Source: Escherichia coli O127:H6 str. E2348/69
Lineage (GTDB): Bacteria > Pseudomonadota > Gammaproteobacteria > Enterobacterales > Enterobacteriaceae
Direction: 5' to 3' (one strand)
Assembly (NCBI RefSeq): GCF_000026545.1
Contig: NC_011601.1
DNA length: 64,000 nt
The notes below the pieces were generated by a model. It saw nothing but the letters and a program-made list of their open reading frames with translations. It made no database searches and was not told the DNA's origin. Shown in pieces: positions 3,005-63,526 of this stretch. Each line of letters opens with the position of its first letter. The stretch's first letter is position 1. The translations under genes were made by a program, and so were the position numbers.

Positions 3005-3056
3005 CCGGAGTCTGCGTCGCATCAGGCAATAAGCGCCGGATGCGACATCAGGCTCT
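3005..3056. repeat. REP (repetitive extragenic palindrome) element
   Basis: gcgtcgcatcaggc ... gccggatgcgacatcaggc palindromic units typical of E. coli REP. Confidence 0.7.
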
Positions 3057-22270: not shown

Positions 22271-23788
22271 TCATCCTTCGTTATGCATTTCGAGATTTTC
22301 CACTTCGTTCTGACGTTGCACTGCTTTGGCGTCGTCATTACGTAAAGTATCGAGGAAATCGAGGTAGCCCTGATCAACGTCTTTGGTGACGTAGACGCCG
22401 TTGAATACCGAGCATTCAAACTGCTGGATATCCGGGTTTTCAGCGCGAACGGCTTCGATCAGATCGTTCAGATCCTGGAAAATCAACCCGTCAGCACCGA
22501 TGATCTGGCGAATTTCATCTACTTCGCGACCGTGAGCGATCAGTTCCGTGGCGCTCGGCATATCGATACCGTAAACGTTCGGGAAGCGAATTTCCGGTGC
22601 CGCAGAAGCGAGGTACACTTTCTTCGCTCCGGCTTCGCGTGCCATCTCGATAATCTGCTCAGAAGTGGTGCCACGGACGATGGAGTCGTCGACCAGCAGG
22701 ACGTTTTTATCGCGGAACTCGGCGCGGTTGGCGTTCAGTTTACGGCGCACGGACTTACGACGCAGCTGCTGACCCGGCATGATGAAGGTACGGCCAACAT
22801 AGCGGTTTTTAACGAAGCCCTGGCGGTACGGTTTGCCCAGAATACGCGCAATTTCCAGCGCGATATCACACGAGGTTTCCGGAATAGGGATCACCACGTC
22901 GATATCCAGATCTTCCCATTCGCGGGCAATTTTCTCGCCCAGTTTGGTGCCCATATTCACGCGCGCGCTGTAAACGGAAATTTTGTCGATGAACGAGTCC
23001 GGGCGGGCAAAGTATACATACTCAAACAGGCACGGATTGCTGACCGGATTGTCAGCACATTGACGGGTAAACAACTGCCCTTCTTCAGTGATGTAAATCG
23101 CTTCGCCAGGCGCGACGTCACGCAGGAAATCAAAGCCCAGCGTATCGAGCGCAACACTTTCGGAAGCGACCATATATTCTGTGCGGTTCTCGTCAATATC
23201 ACGTTTTCCCAGTACCAGCGGACGAATCCCGTTAGGATCGCGGAAAGCAACCATACCGTGGCCGATGATCATCGCCACACAGGCATACGCGCCGCGGATT
23301 AAGCGGTTTGTAGCAGCGATGGCGGCGAAAATGTTGTCGGCTTCCAGCGGGTAGTGGCGGAAGTTGTCCAGCTCGCTGGCGAAGATATTAAGCAGAATTT
23401 CCGAGTCGGAAGTGGTGTTGATGTGGCGGCGTTTTTCTTCAAACAGTTTTTTACGCAACTCGTGAGCGTTGGTCAGATTACCGTTGTGGGCAAGCGTAAT
23501 GCCATACGGGGAGTTAACGTAAAACGGCTGCGCTTCAGAGGCGCTGGAGCTGCCAGCCGTGGGGTAACGCACATGACCAATGCCCATATTGCCCTGCAAA
23601 CGCTGCATATGGCGAGCTTCAAATACATCGCTCACCAGCCCGTTCGCTTTCCGCAAACGGAAGCAGTTATTGGCATCTATGGTGATGATGCCGGCGGCAT
23701 CCTGACCGCGATGCTGAAGCACCGTTAAGGCATCATAAATCGACTGGTTAACCGGCATAACACCGGCGATACCGACAATACCGCACAT
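22271..23788 (-). CDS. purF: Amidophosphoribosyltransferase
   Basis: 505-aa [12 protein letters not shown]..., N-terminal Cys glutamine amidotransferase. Confidence 0.97.
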
Positions 23789-23824
23789 ACGTCTTTTTCC
23801 TCGTTAAGCCACATCTCAGAGCAC

Positions 23825-24313
23825 TTACGCTCTGGGCAAGAAACTTGACGAGCTTTGCAGATAATCAAAAAACCATCTGATGATAAAACTGAACTGCGGG
23901 ATCAGCTGTGATTTGCTCCAGTCTTCGCTTTTCGACACCCCGGTAAAGGAGTCGAGAAAGAAGAGAATGGCAGCAACAATCAACACACCGCGCAACGCAC
24001 CGAAACAGACGCCCAACACCCGATCGGTGCCTGACAACCCCGTTTTCTCCACCAACTGGCCTATCACGAAGTTCACGATAGCACCAACGATCAGGGTAGC
24101 GATAAACAGTACCGCGATGGCAATCCCATTTCGAACCAGTTCGTCTTCAAAGCCCGTAAACCAGACTGACAGGTAAGTGTAGTAATGACTGGCAACAAAG
24201 AAAGCACAACCCCATGTCACCAGCGATAACGCTTCACGAACAAAGCCGCGGATCAGGCTAACCAGAGAGGAAAAAGCAATCACCGCGATTATGGCGTAAT
24301 CAATCCAGACCAT
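23825..24313 (-). CDS. cvpA: Colicin V production membrane protein
   Basis: 162-aa membrane ORF MVWIDYAIIAVIAFS. Confidence 0.92.
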   Translation of the reverse strand: MVWIDYAIIAVIAFSSLVSLIRGFVREALSLVTWGCAFFVASHYYTYLSVWFTGFEDELVRNGIAIAVLFIATLIVGAIVNFVIGQLVEKTGLSGTDRVLGVCFGALRGVLIVAAILFFLDSFTGVSKSEDWSKSQLIPQFSFIIRWFFDYLQSSSSFLPRA

Positions 24314-24477
24314 ATGTGTCCCACGATTTTACGCCCTGTCATCCTGTTCGGGGCGCATTCTAACAGAAAAAGAAAACGTTTGCGTAGGGATTTCCTTCCC
24401 GCGCATCAATAAAAATGGCGCTGAAAAAATATTCAACGCCATCGACTTTTTATGCCTTTGCGGCATCGGGCAATGCG

Positions 24478-24640
24478 TGTCGGATGCGGCGCGGGGCTGC
24501 TCCAGCGTAGGCCTGATAAGACACGCCAGTGTCGCATCAGGCAACGACTGTCGGATGCGGTGTAAACGCCTTATCCGACCTACGGGGCTACCCCTGCACA
24601 GGCCTGATAAGATGCGCCAGCGTCGCATCAGGCAAGACCG
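24478..24640. repeat. Cluster of REP elements (BIME)
   Basis: Several copies of gcctgataagacgc / gtcgcatcaggc / cggatgcggcgtaaacgccttatccgacctac motifs in alternating orientation. Confidence 0.8.
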
Positions 24641-24642
24641 TA

Positions 24643-25305
24643 TTAATTCGGTGTATAGCCCATTACCACGCCACTTAAGCCAGAAAGCTGCTTGAGCTCA
24701 CCCAGCGATCCTTTCAGCTTCTCTTTGGAAGCATCCGGCCCAACCAGAATACGGGTAATTTTACCCTGCACTGGCGTGGATGGCGACGTATAAACCCGAT
24801 AACCGGCACCGCGCAGCTTACCGACAATCTCATTCACTTTATCGGCATTTTTCAGCGCGCCCAGTTGCACAACATAAGCTTTCCCCGTTGGCGCTGCTTT
24901 TTCTTCCACGACCGGCTTCGGTTCTGGCTTCGGCGCAGGTGGTGCTTCAACCTTTGGCTTAAGCGGCTCCACCGGTTTCGGCTTCGGTGGGGCGACCGGT
25001 GCAGGTTCCGGTTCAAACTCGGTGTTATTGGCTGCAATAGTGGCCGGATCGAGCGACGGTGCTGCGGCATCACCTGCCCGTACCTCTTCCGCTGCGCCTT
25101 CCGGCGGCTGCGTCGGCAACGCCTGGGTGGCGGCTGGCATCATATCAGGCTCATCGCGATCGCCCGCTTTTGGCACCAGCGGGATAGCCGCGAACTCATC
25201 CTGATAATGTTTTTTCTGCCCGTCCAGCAGCCCTGGAAGTACAATCACCCCCAGCGCTACCAGCACGATCGTGCCCACTAACCGATTCTGAAACTTACTT
25301 GCCAC
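24643..25305 (-). CDS. dedD: Cell division protein DedD (SPOR domain)
   Basis: Pro/Ala/Lys-rich linker and C-terminal SPOR domain; probable GTG start at 25305 (ORF track extends 18 nt upstream). Confidence 0.88.
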   Translation of the reverse strand: MASKFQNRLVGTIVLVALGVIVLPGLLDGQKKHYQDEFAAIPLVPKAGDRDEPDMMPAATQALPTQPPEGAAEEVRAGDAAAPSLDPATIAANNTEFEPEPAPVAPPKPKPVEPLKPKVEAPPAPKPEPKPVVEEKAAPTGKAYVVQLGALKNADKVNEIVGKLRGAGYRVYTSPSTPVQGKITRILVGPDASKEKLKGSLGELKQLSGLSGVVMGYTPN

Positions 25306-26563
25306 CGCTTCTCCTCGCGTCAATCACTTCCATGACATGTGCGACCGTGTGGAACGAACCACACACCAGCACGGTGTCTTCCGCTTTAGCGTCCGCCATT
25401 GCGGCATCCCATGCCTGCGCAACGCTATCAAATGATTTGCCGTTACCCAAATGCTCAAGCAGTTGTTCTGCCGTGGCACCGCGCGGCCCTTCCAGTGGCG
25501 CACAATACCAGTCATCAACCACGCTTTTCAACCAGGCCAGAGTTCCGGCAATATCTTTATCATGTAGCATACCGATAACCGCCAGCACGCGCCCGTTTTT
25601 CGGTAGCGCTTTCATACGCCCGGTGAGATATTCCGCCGCATGTGGATTATGCGCGACATCAAAAATAACGCGTGGCGACTCGCTCACAATCTGGAAACGT
25701 CCCGGCAAAATTGCGCTGGCAATTCCGTCGCGAATGGCATTTTCACTGACCTCCAGCCCGCTGGCACGCAGTGCCGCCAGCGCCGTTGCGGCATTCGGTT
25801 GCGGGACAAGCGGCAACGGCAGATTTTCCAGCGTGCCGTGAGCATCGCTAAACGTCCAGTCATGATCGGTGACGGAATAGTTCCACTCAACGCCCCGACG
25901 TTGGAGCAGTGCACCTTTTTCCTGCGCCACATCAGCAATGGTAGAAGGCATCTCCGGCTCACCGACAATTGCCGGTTTTTCGCTGCGAAAGATACCTGCT
26001 TTCTCGCGACCAATACTTTCGCGATCTGGCCCCAGCCAGTCGGTATGATCCAGCGCAATACTGGTTACTACCGCGACATCGGCATCGACAATATTGGTTG
26101 CGTCCAGACGACCGCCCAGCCCTACTTCCAGAATCACTACGTCAAGTTGTGCCTGCTTGAACAGCCACAACGCCGAGAGCGTACCGTACTCGAAATAGGT
26201 CAGGGAAATATCACCGCGTGCCGATTCAATCTCCGCAAAAGAAGCGGTGTGGGCCGATTCCGGCAATTCCTGACCCTGCACACGTACGCGCTCGGTATAA
26301 CGCACCAGATGCGGCGAACTGTAGACGCCCACTTTGTACCCTGCCGCCATCAGAATCGACTCCAGCGTACGGCAGGTGGTGCCTTTGCCATTAGTACCCG
26401 CAACGGTAAACACAAATGGCGCTGGTTTCAGAACGCCAAGACGCGCCGCGACCTGGCTCACGCGCTCAAGGCCGAGATCGATAGTTTTACTGTGCAGGTT
26501 TTCCAGATAAGAAAGCCACGAAGCCAGAGGCGACGCGGCTTGAGGAGTGCGTTTGATAATCAT
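25295..26563 (-). CDS. folC: Dihydrofolate synthase / folylpolyglutamate synthase
   Basis: 422-aa ORF MIIKRTPQAASPLASWLSYLENLH... Confidence 0.95.
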   Translation of the reverse strand: MIIKRTPQAASPLASWLSYLENLHSKTIDLGLERVSQVAARLGVLKPAPFVFTVAGTNGKGTTCRTLESILMAAGYKVGVYSSPHLVRYTERVRVQGQELPESAHTASFAEIESARGDISLTYFEYGTLSALWLFKQAQLDVVILEVGLGGRLDATNIVDADVAVVTSIALDHTDWLGPDRESIGREKAGIFRSEKPAIVGEPEMPSTIADVAQEKGALLQRRGVEWNYSVTDHDWTFSDAHGTLENLPLPLVPQPNAATALAALRASGLEVSENAIRDGIASAILPGRFQIVSESPRVIFDVAHNPHAAEYLTGRMKALPKNGRVLAVIGMLHDKDIAGTLAWLKSVVDDWYCAPLEGPRGATAEQLLEHLGNGKSFDSVAQAWDAAMADAKAEDTVLVCGSFHTVAHVMEVIDARRSGGK

Positions 26564-33903: not shown

Positions 33904-33930
33904 AAAAAGGGAACCATCGGGTTCCCTTTT
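33904..33930 (-). terminator. Hairpin + T-run, probable fabB terminator
   Basis: aaagggaaccatcgggttcccttt read on the minus strand. Confidence 0.55.
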
Positions 33931-33937
33931 GCGTTAG

Positions 33938-33995
33938 TGCCGGAGGCCGCATTGGCGCGCAACGTCGGATGCGGCGCTGGCGCGTCTTATCCGAC
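33938..33995. repeat. REP element
   Basis: gccggaggccgcattggcgcgc...cggatgcggcgctggcgcgtcttatccgacctac. Confidence 0.7.
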
Positions 33996-34005
33996 CTACT
34001 CCGAA

Positions 34006-37409: not shown

Positions 37410-37504
<95 letters not shown>

Positions 37505-42787: not shown

Positions 42788-42830
42788 TCGAATGCCTGAT
42801 AAGACGCTTCAGCGTCGCATCAGGCATCAG
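42788..42830. repeat. REP element
   Basis: gcctgataagacgcttcagcgtcgcatcaggc palindrome. Confidence 0.75.
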
Positions 42831-58441: not shown

Positions 58442-58516
58442 GTCCTCTTAGTTAAATGGATATAACGAGCCCCTCCTAAGGGCTAATTGCAGGTTCGATT
58501 CCTGCAGGGGACACCA
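58442..58516 (+). tRNA. argW: tRNA-Arg (anticodon CCU)
   Basis: gtcctcttagttaaatggatataacgagcccctCCTaagggctaattgcaggttcgattcctgcaggggacacca: cloverleaf with CCU anticodon loop, T-arm GGTTCGATTCC, no encoded CCA. Confidence 0.9.
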
Positions 58517-58677
58517 TTTATCAGTTCGCTCCCATCCGTACCAGTCCGCAAAATCCCCTGAATATCAAGCCTTACGTATATTCACGGTTCGTCATGGTTC
58601 GCGTCAGATCGTTGACAGCCGCACTCCATGACGGGTAAAAAGTGGATAAAATAATTTTACCCACCGGATTTTTACCC

Positions 58678-59835
58678 ATGCTCACCGTTAAGCAGATTGA
58701 AGCAGCAAAGCCGAAAGAAAAACCATACCGCCTACTCGATGGTAATGGCCTGTACCTTTATGTCCCTGTATCAGGGAAAAAGGTATGGCAGCTTCGCTAC
58801 AAGATTGACGGTAAGGAGAAAATCCTGACTGTCGGAAAATATCCGCTTATGACTTTGCAGGAAGCAAGGGATAAGGCATGGACTGCGAGGAAAGACATCT
58901 CGGTTGGCATCGATCCGGTAAAGGCGAAAAAGGCTTCGTCTAACAACAATTCATTTAGTGCGATTTACAAGGAATGGTACGAGCACAAGAAGCAAGTCTG
59001 GTCAGTAGGCTATGCAACTGAACTTGCCAAAATGTTTGATGACGACATTTTACCCATCATCGGCGGTCTTGAGATTCAGGATATTGAGCCGATGCAACTG
59101 CTGGAAGTAATCCGCAGATTTGAAGATCGCGGTGCAATGGAGCGAGCCAACAAAGCCCGCAGAAGATGCGGCGAGGTTTTTCGTTACGCTATTGTCACCG
59201 GAAGGGCTAAATATAACCCGGCACCTGACCTTGCAGACGCCATGAAAGGATACCGCAAGAAGAACTTCCCGTTCCTTCCAGCAGACCAGATGCCTGCATT
59301 CAACAAAGCACTGGCAACATTTTCAGGAAGTATCGTATCGCTCATTGCGACAAAAGTTTTACGTTATACAGCCCTAAGAACGAAAGAGCTTCGTTCCATG
59401 CTATGGAAGAACGTCGATTTTGAAAACAGGATTATCACCATCGACGCCAGTGTGATGAAGGGACGCAAAATTCATGTGGTCCCGATGTCAGACCAGGTGG
59501 TTGAACTTCTCACTACGCTAAGCTCAATCACCAAACCAGTCTCAGAGTTTGTTTTTGCCGGGCGCAACGATAAGAAGAAGCCAATCTGCGAGAACGCGGT
59601 ATTGCTTGTGATCAAACAAATCGGCTATGAAGGTCTGGAAAGCGGTCACGGATTCAGGCATGAATTCAGCACGATTATGAACGAGCACGAATGGCCTGCT
59701 GACGCTATTGAAGTGCAACTGGCACATGCCAACGGCGGATCTGTGCGTGGGATTTACAACCATGCTCAGTATCTCGATAAACGCAGAGAAATGATGCAGT
59801 GGTGGGCGGACTGGCTTGATGAAAAGGTAGGGTGA
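58678..59835 (+). mobile_element. intS: P4-family tyrosine integrase (phage integrase)
   Basis: N-terminal arm-binding domain and C-terminal catalytic domain (R...HGFRH...Y), directly downstream of tRNA-Arg; start set at MLTVKQIEAA (ORF track begins 36 nt upstream). Confidence 0.9.
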
Positions 59836-60065
59836 TCGACCTTAACAACTATCGAATAGCACAAAGACTTGCGGGCCAGTGCAAGGCGTTCTGTGTCTCA
59901 GTTTTGTCTAAGTGTTCTACTAAAACATAGTAAAATCGGTAACGGCTGGAAATCATTCAATACTCGCACTATCGAAAGTTCGCCAGCCAGCCGCAGCACG
60001 TTCTTGCATACGACGTGGCTGCGGCTTCCAACATTAGACAAATAACTCTTTAAATTGCTTTTAAA

Positions 60066-60281
60066 TTATTTCGTTTGAATGCCAGTAACAGGAAATCGTT
60101 TATATAGGGTTGATAGCCCAACGTTATAGATACGTGCAACATAACGCCGCGATTTCCCTGCCGCTATGAGCGCTCCCATCTGTTGCCACTGCTCGTCGCT
60201 AAACTTCGGTCTACGCCCACCAATCCGGCCTTTGGATCTGGCAATAGCCAAACCAGCTAAAGTTCCGGGATGACAGGCCAG
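60066..60281 (-). pseudogene. Remnant of a Gin/Pin/Hin-family serine DNA invertase: C-terminal HTH domain only
   Basis: ...GRIGGRRPKFSDEQWQQMGALIAAGKSRRYVARIYNVGLSTLYKRF matches the invertase C-terminus; frame opens only from 60281 and the ORF-track Met is a TTG; no catalytic N-terminal domain. Confidence 0.75.
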
Positions 60282-60625
60282 TTAACATGCTCAGGGTCGG
60301 TTGTTACATCAACAGCCTTAACCTGATTCTTATATAAAAGCCACGCCGAAAGTTTAGCTCTGTTGGCATCGCTGATTTCACCCAGCATCAGCTCTGTGCG
60401 CCAGTCGAGCATAATTGCATCAGCGGCGGACAGTAATCGCTGTCGCTCATTTTCAGCAGCCTGGATGAGTTGTTCATGAGTCGGTGGGGGATTAATAATT
60501 TCCATAGCCTCACTTCTGGTGATTGGCACAAGCCCTTCTTTGATAAAAGCATCCTGTGTGCCATACGCATCGTAGGCATATACGACGTTATTTTCATCTT
60601 TGTAATACTTCATCATTGTTATCAT
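60257..60625 (-). CDS. Phage tail-fibre assembly (chaperone) protein, short form
   Basis: 122-aa ORF with the conserved Tfa C-terminal motif (...[20 protein letters not shown]); directly downstream of the tail-fibre gene. Confidence 0.75.
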
Positions 60626-61668
60626 TTTTTATCCACCTCTGCCCAGGTAACATCTGACACAGTTCCTGAAAACTGCCGCACGACATAGGTCGCACCGGCA
60701 GGAACCATGAATGCGATAGTTGCTCTGTGCCCTGCAAGATTTGTTGTCTGATTGCCGCGAAAATTAGCCAAATTACCATCCATATTAACGTCGGCGCTCA
60801 GAAATGAACTACCGTCAGACATCACCGCATTGACGCTTACAAATATGGCGAAAGACTGGCTGTTGGTGTATACGACACCGAGATTTCTAGATTTCATTCC
60901 GCATTGACCAAACAACCCTTTCATATCTGAGTAGTTTTGTGATGCAGCAAGTGATGATGCGGCAACACCAGATTCTGTTGATGTTCTGGAATCAGATACG
61001 CGGATAATTCCCTTGTTTGTAGTGGTTGCATCATTAGTCTTGCCTTGCAGAGCTACAATATCCGCATAATTCATCGCTGCCGCTTTTGCTGTTGCAGCAA
61101 GCGTTTCAGATTCGGATACCCTTGATGATGTAAGTTGAACAATTCCTTTCTGTGTCGTAGTTGAATCCTGAGTTTTGTTTTGCAAAGATTTTATGTCCGT
61201 ATAGTTTTGCGCGACAGCATTAGCTGTGGCTGCAATATCCTCTGCACCCGATACCCGCGATGACGTTAACCGGACTAAACCCACCTGTGTTGTTGATGCG
61301 TTTTTAATACCAAGGTTTTCGAGAGCCGTTTGCACAGTGCCATCCGATTTGATATCGCCAAACGGATTCTTGCGGCTCAGGTATTCAACAGCAAACCCCG
61401 ATCCCAGCAATTCAACAAAACCGGGCAGATCACCATTATCAAGCACATCCCGTTGCGTTTTATCACTTACAAACTGGGCCAGAGCTGCAGCAATAAAGCT
61501 GGCCTGCCGAATAACCTTATTGACTTGCGCACTGGATGCTTTCCCTGCTGTAAATCCGGATATAAGCGCAGGCAACGCTTCCCATTCCTCCTGCGACATA
61601 ACATTGGCATTTCGATCAGTTGCAAACGCTTTAAAGTCATTTTTCGCCATCAGAGTAATACTCCCCAT
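60622..61668 (-). CDS. Phage side tail-fibre protein with three tandem fibre repeats
   Basis: 348-aa ORF; three ~43-aa repeats ([16 protein letters not shown]...[15 protein letters not shown]) characteristic of tail-fibre proteins. Confidence 0.85.
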
Positions 61669-62330
61669 GCCCCTACATCAAAACCACTGATGAATTCGTT
61701 ATCCATATCAAAACCAAAAAATTTAGAGCCTTCCGATGGAGTTTCCACCGAAGGTGTTTCAATGCCCCCCGCCCATACCCCGGCGGCTTTTACTGTTAGA
61801 TACCCCTGTTTAATTGCCGCAATTAACTCACGCGATACATCTGAAATATCAGTATCAGGAAAGACCCAGACCGATATCGTCATGTCCTGGTTATCGACTA
61901 TCTGCATTCGCAGCCCGGATCCTGCTGTTGCCGCGTCAAGAATTGCCGGAAGCGAATCATTCCGTCCGTCCCAGTTATTAATCGCAATCTTCGCTTTAAG
62001 AATGACACGATAAGTTTCATCGCTGAGATACATGTATCCTGAATCAGGATCGTATGGTCCCTGCCATACCCCCTGATCATATCCAAGCCCGTCGGTATCC
62101 CAGCTGAAATAGACACCTGAGATAGGCTGGCTGACAACACGGCTACGTCCGATCCACAATCCAAGAATGTCAAGTTGCACACCAACCGCAGAGTCAATAT
62201 CAAATGCAGTAATCAGCCCTCTGGTGGCAGCCGCAACATCAATAAGTGGCCGGGTCATCAGATCAACATGCGCAAGAAATTTAGGTTTGGTAGCGTGGTA
62301 GTTCGTGATTAGTTCGGTGTATTTGCTCAT
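61650..62330 (-). CDS. Phage tail/baseplate protein (Mu gp48 / DUF2313-like)
   Basis: 226-aa ORF between the baseplate J-like gene and the tail fibre, as in Mu-like tail modules. Confidence 0.7.
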
Positions 62331-63526
62331 GACTCCACCGTTATAACGATATTTTCCGGGGTACAGGACGTAGATTCGTTGTATCTGATATCAATGTTTG
62401 ATGACGACAAAGCCCCCGGGGATTTCCCAATCGTCAGTTCCTGAATATCGTAATAGCGTGCATTCCCGCCACTCACCACGCCAAGATTCGCCGGTGAGTA
62501 AATGCGACTTAAAAGGACCGAATCACCAATCATCAGACTATTGATATAGTCGGAAATAGCCTGCTGGATCTGCTGCCCTATCTGTGAGGTATAACCCGTA
62601 AAAACTTTTAATTTAATCCGGGCGTAAACAGGCACATCACTGGAACGCGAGAATTTGATTACATGGGGATTGCCGTATTTATCCGGAACCGTAACGGATG
62701 TTGTACCGTGAGTGGCTGTCCCCTGGCCTTTATTTCCTCTGATAGCCTGAGCAATATCCGTCACATCACCGCCATCCACAATTACAGCAACAGAGTGTGG
62801 CGGTAACCCGTTACCGTCCTCCGAACCAGTATCGTTTTCATAGAGTTTGTGGCGGGTTACACCGGTAACATTAGAAACAGCACCATCCAGTGCTTCAAAT
62901 GGGGTTATTGATGGCAACGCAACACTTTGCGACTGGCGGATACGTAACTCCGCATCAGTTTCTGCTGGAGTGCCTACAGTAGCTGCAGCAGGATTGGTTA
63001 CCGAAACCCAGCCACGGGTTGGCGTATTAATTTCAGTGATAGTTCCAGCCAGCGCCGCCACTGCACCACTGACAGAACATTTTGCGGTCACCATCACTGT
63101 ACCATCCACGCCGACCACCACTGAAGCAGGCAAACGCCATATCACATTATTACTGTCTTTCACGCTGCCATTAATGATGGTTGTTCCGGCAGTTCCTGTA
63201 AGAAGCAAATCAACCGTAGAATTCGTCGCGCCTTTACGTGAAATACCATTTATTTTCACGTTACTGGTCAGTGCAGCCCCATAGCCGGTTGCCGGTGAAA
63301 AACAGTTGTAGACAGTTATCGCCATATTATTGGCATCATGAATCGCCAGCGCCATCAGAGCCACCATCTGGCCGTCTTTGCTGTCCGGTTCGAGGTAGGC
63401 ATCACTGCCATAAATCTGCTGAAAATAGCTAATCAGGGTGCTGAGTATCGTCTGATAATCAGGCGCACTGATCCCCTCCGCGGTTACCTTTGCAGATAAA
63501 CCGAGAGAATCAAGGTTCAGAGCCAT
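62327..63526 (-). CDS. Baseplate J-like protein (Mu gp47-like)
   Basis: 399-aa ORF; size, position and overlapping stop/start junctions typical of baseplate wedge gene J. Confidence 0.7.
   Translation of the reverse strand: MALNLDSLGLSAKVTAEGISAPDYQTILSTLISYFQQIYGSDAYLEPDSKDGQMVALMALAIHDANNMAITVYNCFSPATGYGAALTSNVKINGISRKGATNSTVDLLLTGTAGTTIINGSVKDSNNVIWRLPASVVVGVDGTVMVTAKCSVSGAVAALAGTITEINTPTRGWVSVTNPAAATVGTPAETDAELRIRQSQSVALPSITPFEALDGAVSNVTGVTRHKLYENDTGSEDGNGLPPHSVAVIVDGGDVTDIAQAIRGNKGQGTATHGTTSVTVPDKYGNPHVIKFSRSSDVPVYARIKLKVFTGYTSQIGQQIQQAISDYINSLMIGDSVLLSRIYSPANLGVVSGGNARYYDIQELTIGKSPGALSSSNIDIRYNESTSCTPENIVITVES

Follow-up and report, generated by a model that had tools for sequence, protein, structure and literature searches.

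The repetitive extragenic palindromic (REP) array described here lies in a 64-kb window, the whole stretch of 64,000 nucleotides of Escherichia coli O127:H6 E2348/69 that was analysed, within a series of minus-strand genes comprising ubiX, purF, cvpA, dedD and folC. A query of 561 bases from the window matched E2348/69 without a difference. The RefSeq annotation of the E2348/69 sequence and the list of open reading frames agree on these genes, and the annotation confirms the assignment of cvpA and dedD in an earlier note on this DNA. The two genes are separated by a spacer of 329 nt (24314-24642) that contains no RefSeq gene, so the REP array is strictly extragenic. Read along the minus strand from the dedD stop codon, the spacer passes through 9 nt, a Z2-type REP, a linker of 14 nt, a Y-type REP, a linker of 6 nt and a second Z2, and onward through a linker of 15 nt, one half of a Y, a Z2-like remnant, a terminator, a PurR operator and TAGAAT to cvpA (Table 1).

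Table 1. Coordinates of genes, REP units, linkers and regulatory features in the dedD-cvpA region of E2348/69
Feature	Position	Strand	Evidence or remark
cvpA	23825-24313	minus	RefSeq annotation of E2348/69 sequence, ORF list
TAGAAT after PurR operator	24357-24362	minus	within cvpA-purF-ubiX promoter region 24352-24385 (presumed role)
PurR operator ACGCAAACGTTTTCTT	24370-24385	minus	exact match, 0.04 expected by chance
Intrinsic terminator of folC-dedD transcript	24406-24443 (hairpin 24443->24414 + U-run)	minus	terminator scan, fold, cross-species spacers
Decayed Z2-like remnant GCCTTTGCGGCATCGGGCAATGCG	24454-24477		direct repeat, 78% over 36 nt; zero-unit allele
Half Y, 5' arm only, TGTCGGATGCGGCG	24478-24491	plus	alignments with K-12 and other strains; fold
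Linker CGGGGCTGCTCCAGC, 15 nt, of shortened unit	24492-24506		direct repeat, 85% identical to 24583-24597 onwards
Z2-type REP, complete, middle	24507-24542	minus	consensus match with 2 mismatches, inverted repeat, fold, naRNA4 match
Linker AACGAC, 6 nt, tail-to-tail	24543-24548		6 nt shorter than REP325/naRNA4 linker (Rfam alignment gap)
Y-type REP, complete, TGTCGGATGCGGTGTAAACGCCTTATCCGACCTAC	24549-24583	plus	inverted repeat, naRNA4 alignment first hairpin, fold
Linker GGGGCTACCCCTGC, 14 nt, head-to-head Y/Z2	24584-24597		sequence read; register with other strains' 91-bp units
Z2-type REP, complete, nearest dedD	24598-24633	minus	consensus match with 3 mismatches, inverted repeat, fold, K-12 comparison
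dedD stop codon TAA	24643-24645	minus	ORF list, RefSeq annotation, sequence read
dedD	24643-25305	minus	RefSeq annotation of E2348/69 sequence, ORF list

The folC-dedD terminator has a stem of 12 bp, a loop of 6 nt and a U-run (-18 kcal/mol, z = -6.5 on folding), and its hairpin, which is not a REP, was the sole terminator-like site found by the terminator scan within 24200-24800. The PurR operator is followed by what we take to be the cvpA-purF-ubiX promoter region, a role assigned from established knowledge of the purF operon; this regulatory region lies outside the BIME and sets its downstream boundary. Because the terminator and the PurR operator and promoter are placed between the array and cvpA, the BIME forms part of the folC-dedD 3' UTR and ends about 35 nt upstream of the terminator that this transcript itself carries. 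The earlier note had located the array in an intercistronic gap inside one operon, a description that does not hold given the intervening terminator and operator. Two other readings of the spacer were rejected. A REP hairpin acting as a Rho-independent terminator is contradicted by the lack of a U-run directly after any REP, as only the separate, conserved non-REP hairpin qualifies. Two open reading frames that cross the array (24329-24628 on the minus strand and 24477-24695 on the plus strand; 99 aa and 72 aa) are REP DNA in translation and are unannotated in RefSeq.

The presence of REP units of alternating orientation at 24478-24640, as claimed in the earlier note, was borne out at a frequency far above chance. 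The search with a degenerate REP consensus that had been proposed there, performed on the 64-kb window with up to three mismatches and 100 shuffles, gave four matches against 0.00 expected, and two of these are the Z2 units of the array, 24507-24542(-) and 24598-24633(-). The 13-nt REP arm GCCKGATGCGRCG, with at most one mismatch, was matched nine times against 0.55 expected, the matches including 24479-24491(+), 24530-24542(-) and 24621-24633(-). Inverted repeats and arm matches give the order +,-,+,- across 24478-24634. The note's figure of at least four units was too high: there are three complete units (Z2, Y, Z2) and the 5' arm of a Y at 24479-24491. Folding found no hairpin belonging to this arm (z = 0.37), and the count is therefore three and a half. 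In comparison with full 91-bp units, the half Y lacks 20 nt, which are the loop, the 3' arm and CTA.

All three complete units fold into hairpins with the canonical internal mismatch. Predicted stabilities are -15.6 kcal/mol for the dedD-proximal Z2 (inverted repeat 24602-24633), -13.4 kcal/mol for the Y (inverted repeat 24550-24579) and -20.8 kcal/mol (z = -4.9) for the middle Z2 (24511-24542). The adjacent Y and Z2 are predicted to form a two-hairpin fold closed by GUAG/CUAC pairing (-36.6 kcal/mol, z = -4.4), and the whole dedD 3' UTR folds with z = -4.1. The GTAG/CTAC foot is intact in the Y (CTAC at 24580-24583) and in the middle Z2 (GTAG at 24507-24510, + strand), is replaced by ACAG in the dedD-proximal Z2 (24598-24601, + strand; GTAG in K-12) and has lost CTAC in the half Y. 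The inner stem of the middle Z2 (24520-24533) reads GACAC...GTGTC versus GACGC...GCGTC in K-12, a compensatory change from G-C to A-T that E. coli E69 (L098) shares; the same inner stem in E. albertii has compensatory changes of its own. Between the dedD TAA and the first paired base of the proximal Z2 stem, G24633, there are 9 nt (24634-24642).

These features make the cluster almost certainly a BIME-2, an element of the REP family associated with RAYT/TnpA_REP. BIME-2 elements contain y and z2 units in tandem with short linkers and a copy number that varies between strains (PMC3333891; PMC1187871), while BIME-1 elements contain a single Z1+Y pair and a long L linker, frequently with an IHF site (PMC3333891; PMC2817692). 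The dedD array has alternating Y and Z2 units, short linkers (15, 6 and 14 nt), a tandem unit of 91 bp, an extragenic position at the 3' end of a gene and a strain-variable number of units. Both Z2 units match the degenerate consensus with 2 and 3 mismatches, as against 0 matches by chance, and the second hairpin of the Rfam naRNA4 model is itself a Z2. The Y unit (24549-24583) differs at four positions from the working Y consensus used in the search and was therefore missed at three or fewer mismatches; it is classed as a Y because the Rfam alignment matches it with the Y hairpin of naRNA4 and because it is in register with the Y of K-12. Departures from a standard BIME-2 consist of the terminator-side unit, cut to half a Y in E2348/69, and of ACAG in place of GTAG in the dedD-proximal Z2, both of which are allele-level decay and not a new architecture. 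The element is thus of an already known kind, and K-12 has a BIME-2 at the same locus.

The earlier note was right in describing a BIME-type cluster between cvpA and dedD and wrong in attributing IHF binding to it. The cluster contains neither a Z1 unit nor a long L linker, and the IHF consensus WATCAANNNNTTR has no match anywhere in 24314-24642, which together rule out a BIME-1 or IHF site. A BIME-1 or RIB/RIP element that recruits IHF would likewise present REPs in inverted pairs at the 3' end of a transcription unit, but has next to no likelihood here, as it would be a single copy of Z1 + Y with a long, conserved, IHF-binding L linker, whereas tandem Z2 and Y units with short linkers are the definition of BIME-2 (PMC3333891). 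The stretch should consequently be annotated as a REP array of the BIME-2 type within the 3' UTR of dedD; labels such as gene, sRNA or IHF site would be wrong.

A close relative, and the best-studied BIME-2, is REP325, an array of 12 Y/Z2 units that separates yjdM from yjdN in E. coli K-12 and on whose Y-linker-Z2 unit the naRNA4 model was built. The Rfam naRNA4 family (RF02564) matches 24580->24510(-) over the full length of the model (positions 1-77) with 74.6 bits against a gathering threshold of 59.5 (E = 2e-11), the only difference in the Rfam alignment being a linker that is 6 nt shorter; no other Rfam family was matched in 23700-25400 at E-values up to 1. The two arrays share the two-hairpin Y-linker-Z2 unit and a 3' UTR position on the transcribed strand. 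They differ in size, with three and a half units at dedD, in the shorter tail-to-tail linker and in the dedicated intrinsic terminator that follows the dedD array. HU binding and activity as a terminator and stabiliser have been reported for REP325 only.

RAYT (TnpA_REP, yafM) represents a domesticated IS200/IS605-like transposase with non-autonomous hairpin substrates. Of the features needed by TnpA_REP for binding and cleavage (PMC3333891), the Y and the middle Z2 carry the GTAG/CTAC tetranucleotide and all three complete hairpins the stem mismatch, and the variation of the dedD units in number and sequence fits the role proposed for TnpA_REP in BIME variability. There is no RAYT gene in the 64-kb window, and some B2 strains have lost tnpA_REP.

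Comparison of E. coli strains revealed a polymorphism in the number of units. The K-12 spacer is 258 nt long (counterpart 2430764-2431021) and has exactly one 91-bp Y+Z2 unit; that of E2348/69 is longer by 71 nt, which is a 91-bp unit minus 20 nt. Spacers of 167, 258, 329 (E2348/69), 349, 440, 531 and 804 nt were observed, and all lengths except 329 nt are accounted for, in perfect register, by a unit of exactly 91 bp that is present 0, 1, 2, 3, 4 or 7 times. Among 59 systematically sampled chromosomes, 39 had a single unit and about 18 had several. The E2348/69 allele, which consists of one full unit and a second lacking 20 nt, is rare: of 5,426 complete E. coli genomes, 73 have its junction. 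This variation in the number of 91-bp units is textbook BIME-2 behaviour.

The zero-unit allele of 167 nt is found in E. coli EC17CM6 (L127, 315-481), where the GACCGTA ahead of the dedD stop codon directly adjoins the Z2-like remnant, a fusion that would be produced if the remnant recombined with a true Z2 arm. The remnant is common to every E. coli allele examined, this one included. Two further alleles have deletions inside a REP hairpin, of 23 nt in L128 (315-549) and of 15 nt in L129 (315-648), indicating that hairpin-internal deletions recur at the dedD-cvpA locus. The boundaries of the deletion in the shortened Y of E2348/69 are G|T and A|C, and do not agree with the C|T rule for cleavage by TnpA_REP (PMC3333891). 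Across 22 distinct units, stem positions are paired in 97.9% of cases as opposed to 24-42% when the partners are slid, and two stem pairs show compensatory changes. Across the 5,426 complete E. coli genomes, the locus provides a clean polymorphism in length that is easy to type (91-bp units numbering 0-7, with rare hairpin-internal deletions such as that of E2348/69), and it offers a natural allelic series for asking whether REP copy number tunes the upstream gene, as proposed in work on REP325.

A cross-species scan of one genome per species, using a degenerate pattern for the start of cvpA, yielded 120 loci. Synteny of dedD and cvpA extends from Shewanella through the Enterobacteriaceae. Within the Enterobacteriaceae (spacers L009-L118), the terminator and the PurR box and promoter (24352-24443) are conserved nearly base for base, and the PurR box is kept in every spacer compared, with one substitution in the metagenome-assembled genome L046. 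The stretch that separates the dedD stop codon from the terminator is hypervariable, ranging from 26 to 493 nt. Significant structure was detected in 39 of 55 orthologous segments from this family; seven species have segments of only 26-39 nt with no significant structure.

Arrays with E. coli-type REP arms occur at this site in E. coli and E. albertii only, and single REP-arm matches were found in Buttiauxella noackiae and in three genomes of Citrobacter, a genus that has one or two REP-like hairpins of its own. In Enterobacter, Pseudocitrobacter, Pseudenterobacter and Pluralibacter gergoviae, the site contains palindromes of the form CCCTCTCCC...GGGAGAGGG, often with TTAGGGTGAGGGG, which are unrelated to REP (spacers L039, L013, L047, L110 and L040); Pseudocitrobacter faecalis (L039) has about seven tandem copies in a spacer of 620 nt. 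These palindromes resemble the dedD BIME-2 array in being tandem, GC-rich hairpins in the same slot between the dedD stop codon and the terminator, and differ from it in belonging to an unrelated sequence family. They presumably resemble the 'box C' repeats of E. coli. As the slot is filled differently in each genus and is sometimes empty, the site tolerates or attracts palindromic repeats and requires none. The occurrence of unrelated palindrome families at one site illustrates how such repeats are tolerated or attracted by 3' UTR segments just upstream of terminators.

Our explanation starts from what is observed, namely the family of the array, its architecture, its 3' UTR position and its unit-wise length polymorphism. 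We consider it highly probable as a whole that the array is a BIME-2 and mainly a tolerated repeat. It would be a semi-selfish, non-autonomous element of the RAYT family, and its location in a 3' UTR would explain why it is tolerated. Growth and shrinkage in 91-bp Y+Z2 units probably occur by unequal recombination, by slippage during replication or by cutting and rejoining through RAYT, and small deletions also arise inside the hairpins. The functional effects that we infer at the dedD-cvpA locus would be local and modest. For RNA, the three stable hairpins may slow 3'->5' exonucleases and RNA polymerase, making the array a potential stabiliser and partial terminator like REP325, and the stop-proximal Z2 hairpin may hinder terminating ribosomes; for DNA, the array could be a preferred gyrase site, as BIME-2 arrays are. 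A measurable effect on dedD mRNA or DedD protein levels is conceivable, though somewhat less probable than no such effect, and a requirement for termination or for control of cvpA-purF is very unlikely. The conserved terminator that follows the array would render any termination role of the array largely redundant, and an important function is argued against by the existence of a zero-unit allele, by orthologous spacers that lack structure and by how widely copy number varies.

A stronger role for the array, as a functional 3' UTR element, is possible although doubtful. It would protect the folC-dedD mRNA from exonucleases and promote Rho-aided partial termination, such that unit number sets the dedD/cvpA ratio. 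Stabilisation of the upstream mRNA is plausible by analogy with REP325, which has the same Y/Z2 architecture and which at its native locus raised yjdM mRNA about 3-fold and lowered yjdN about 10-fold, acting as a partial Rho-dependent terminator and upstream mRNA stabiliser with no nucleoid compaction (bioRxiv 10.64898/2026.03.23.713779). The stability of the three hairpins (-13 to -21 kcal/mol), the z-score of the whole 3' UTR and the frequency of significant structure in orthologous Enterobacteriaceae segments are also consistent with such an element. However, the strong, conserved intrinsic terminator after the array already supplies a protective 3' hairpin and termination, E. coli has a zero-unit allele, seven species manage with short, unstructured segments, and no optimum is apparent among copy numbers of 0 to 7. 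The same preprint describes REP effects as strongly context-dependent and reports no general gain in mRNA half-life; in its supplements, dedD and cvpA appear only in genome-wide expression tables. Transcript 3' ends, which the earlier note had suggested as a check, did not favour an effect: the K-12 Term-seq tables list none in 2430606-2431708, a range that includes the spacer (PMC7815308 supplement), an absence that carries little weight since the peaks are thresholded and REP reads map ambiguously. A literature search on dedD, cvpA and REP in combination found nothing specific to this locus.

A role at the DNA level, as a site of gyrase binding and cleavage or as a topological insulator between folC-dedD and cvpA-purF, would suit an array placed between two co-oriented transcription units but is rather unlikely. 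BIME-2 elements are described as having a higher affinity for gyrase than BIME-1 and as being cleaved in vivo (Espeli & Boccard 1997, as summarised in PMC3333891 and PMC2817692). Gyrase binding has no sequence signature that could be scored, and a variable copy number that extends to a zero-unit allele speaks against a required role.

Translational control, in which the Z2 hairpin stalls terminating ribosomes and thereby leads to tmRNA tagging and less DedD, is in our view unlikely. Ribosome stalling by REPs has been described for distances to the stop codon of fewer than 16 nt (Liang, Rudd and Deutscher 2015, as reported in PMC12306157), and the Z2 stem, 9 nt after the dedD stop, falls within this limit. 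The Z2 arm keeps this 9-nt spacing in E. albertii and in all examined E. coli alleles with at least one unit, because units are added on the terminator side. Constant spacing within Escherichia is, however, explained equally well by common descent. The zero-unit allele has just a weak remnant hairpin at that distance, and in Citrobacter and other genera the hairpins lie 17-35 nt or further from the stop codon.

It is improbable that the gap of a few dozen nucleotides between the dedD stop codon and the terminator is a targeted or selected landing site to which unrelated palindromes (the Y/Z2 BIME-2 of Escherichia, the REP-like hairpins of Citrobacter and the CCCTCTCCC/GGGAGAGGG palindromes of the Enterobacter group) were each recruited independently, and in which unit number (0-7 in E. 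coli) acts as a heritable, fast-mutating dial of the level of DedD and also of FolC, the product of folC. Such a dial would operate through the stop-proximal hairpin and the stability of the 3' UTR, and would give rise to strain-specific levels of the cell-division protein DedD.

That processing of the dedD 3' UTR releases the Y-Z2 unit as a naRNA4-like sRNA that binds HU and helps to condense the nucleoid is highly improbable, despite a Rfam score above the gathering threshold and the predicted two-hairpin fold. Since the Rfam model amounts to a BIME-2 unit profile, a match to it tells of sequence family and not of function. The dedD linker is also shorter by 6 nt. The nucleoid role of the founding naRNA4 is itself disputed by a 2026 preprint, in which REP325/naRNA4 had no nucleoid effect and RNA levels were very low (bioRxiv 10.64898/2026.03.23.713779).

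Other REP sequences are dispersed through the window, and the earlier note had listed four of them as single units. Two of these are genuine, at 33964-33999(+) within 33938-33995 and its flank and at 42790-42825 within 42788-42830. The sequence at 37410-37492 is instead a second small BIME (37410-37490), composed of a Y(+) at 37410-37443 and an inverted Z2 at about 37454-37490, head to head across a linker of 9-10 nt. That at 3005-3056 holds no complete unit and is a degenerate remnant (3015-3047), in which the REP half-arms GTCGCATCAGGC and GCCGGATGCGAC (3015-3027 and 3035-3047) face each other across 7 nt. Next to the single REP at 33964-33999 is a hairpin that resembles a terminator (GGGAACC...GGTTCCC, flanked by T/A runs, about 33908-33932); in the near-identical K-12 counterpart of this stretch (33905-33999), Term-seq gave a strong 3' end, labelled 'orphan', at minus-strand position 2440281 (PMC7815308 supplement).

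At the far end of the window, a tRNA-Arg(CCU) gene (58442-58516) is followed by a phage-type integrase (58642-59835) and, beyond this, by tail-fibre and baseplate-J genes on the minus strand (stretch 58442-63526). From its anticodon, we take the tRNA gene to be argW, and a prophage appears to be integrated at it.
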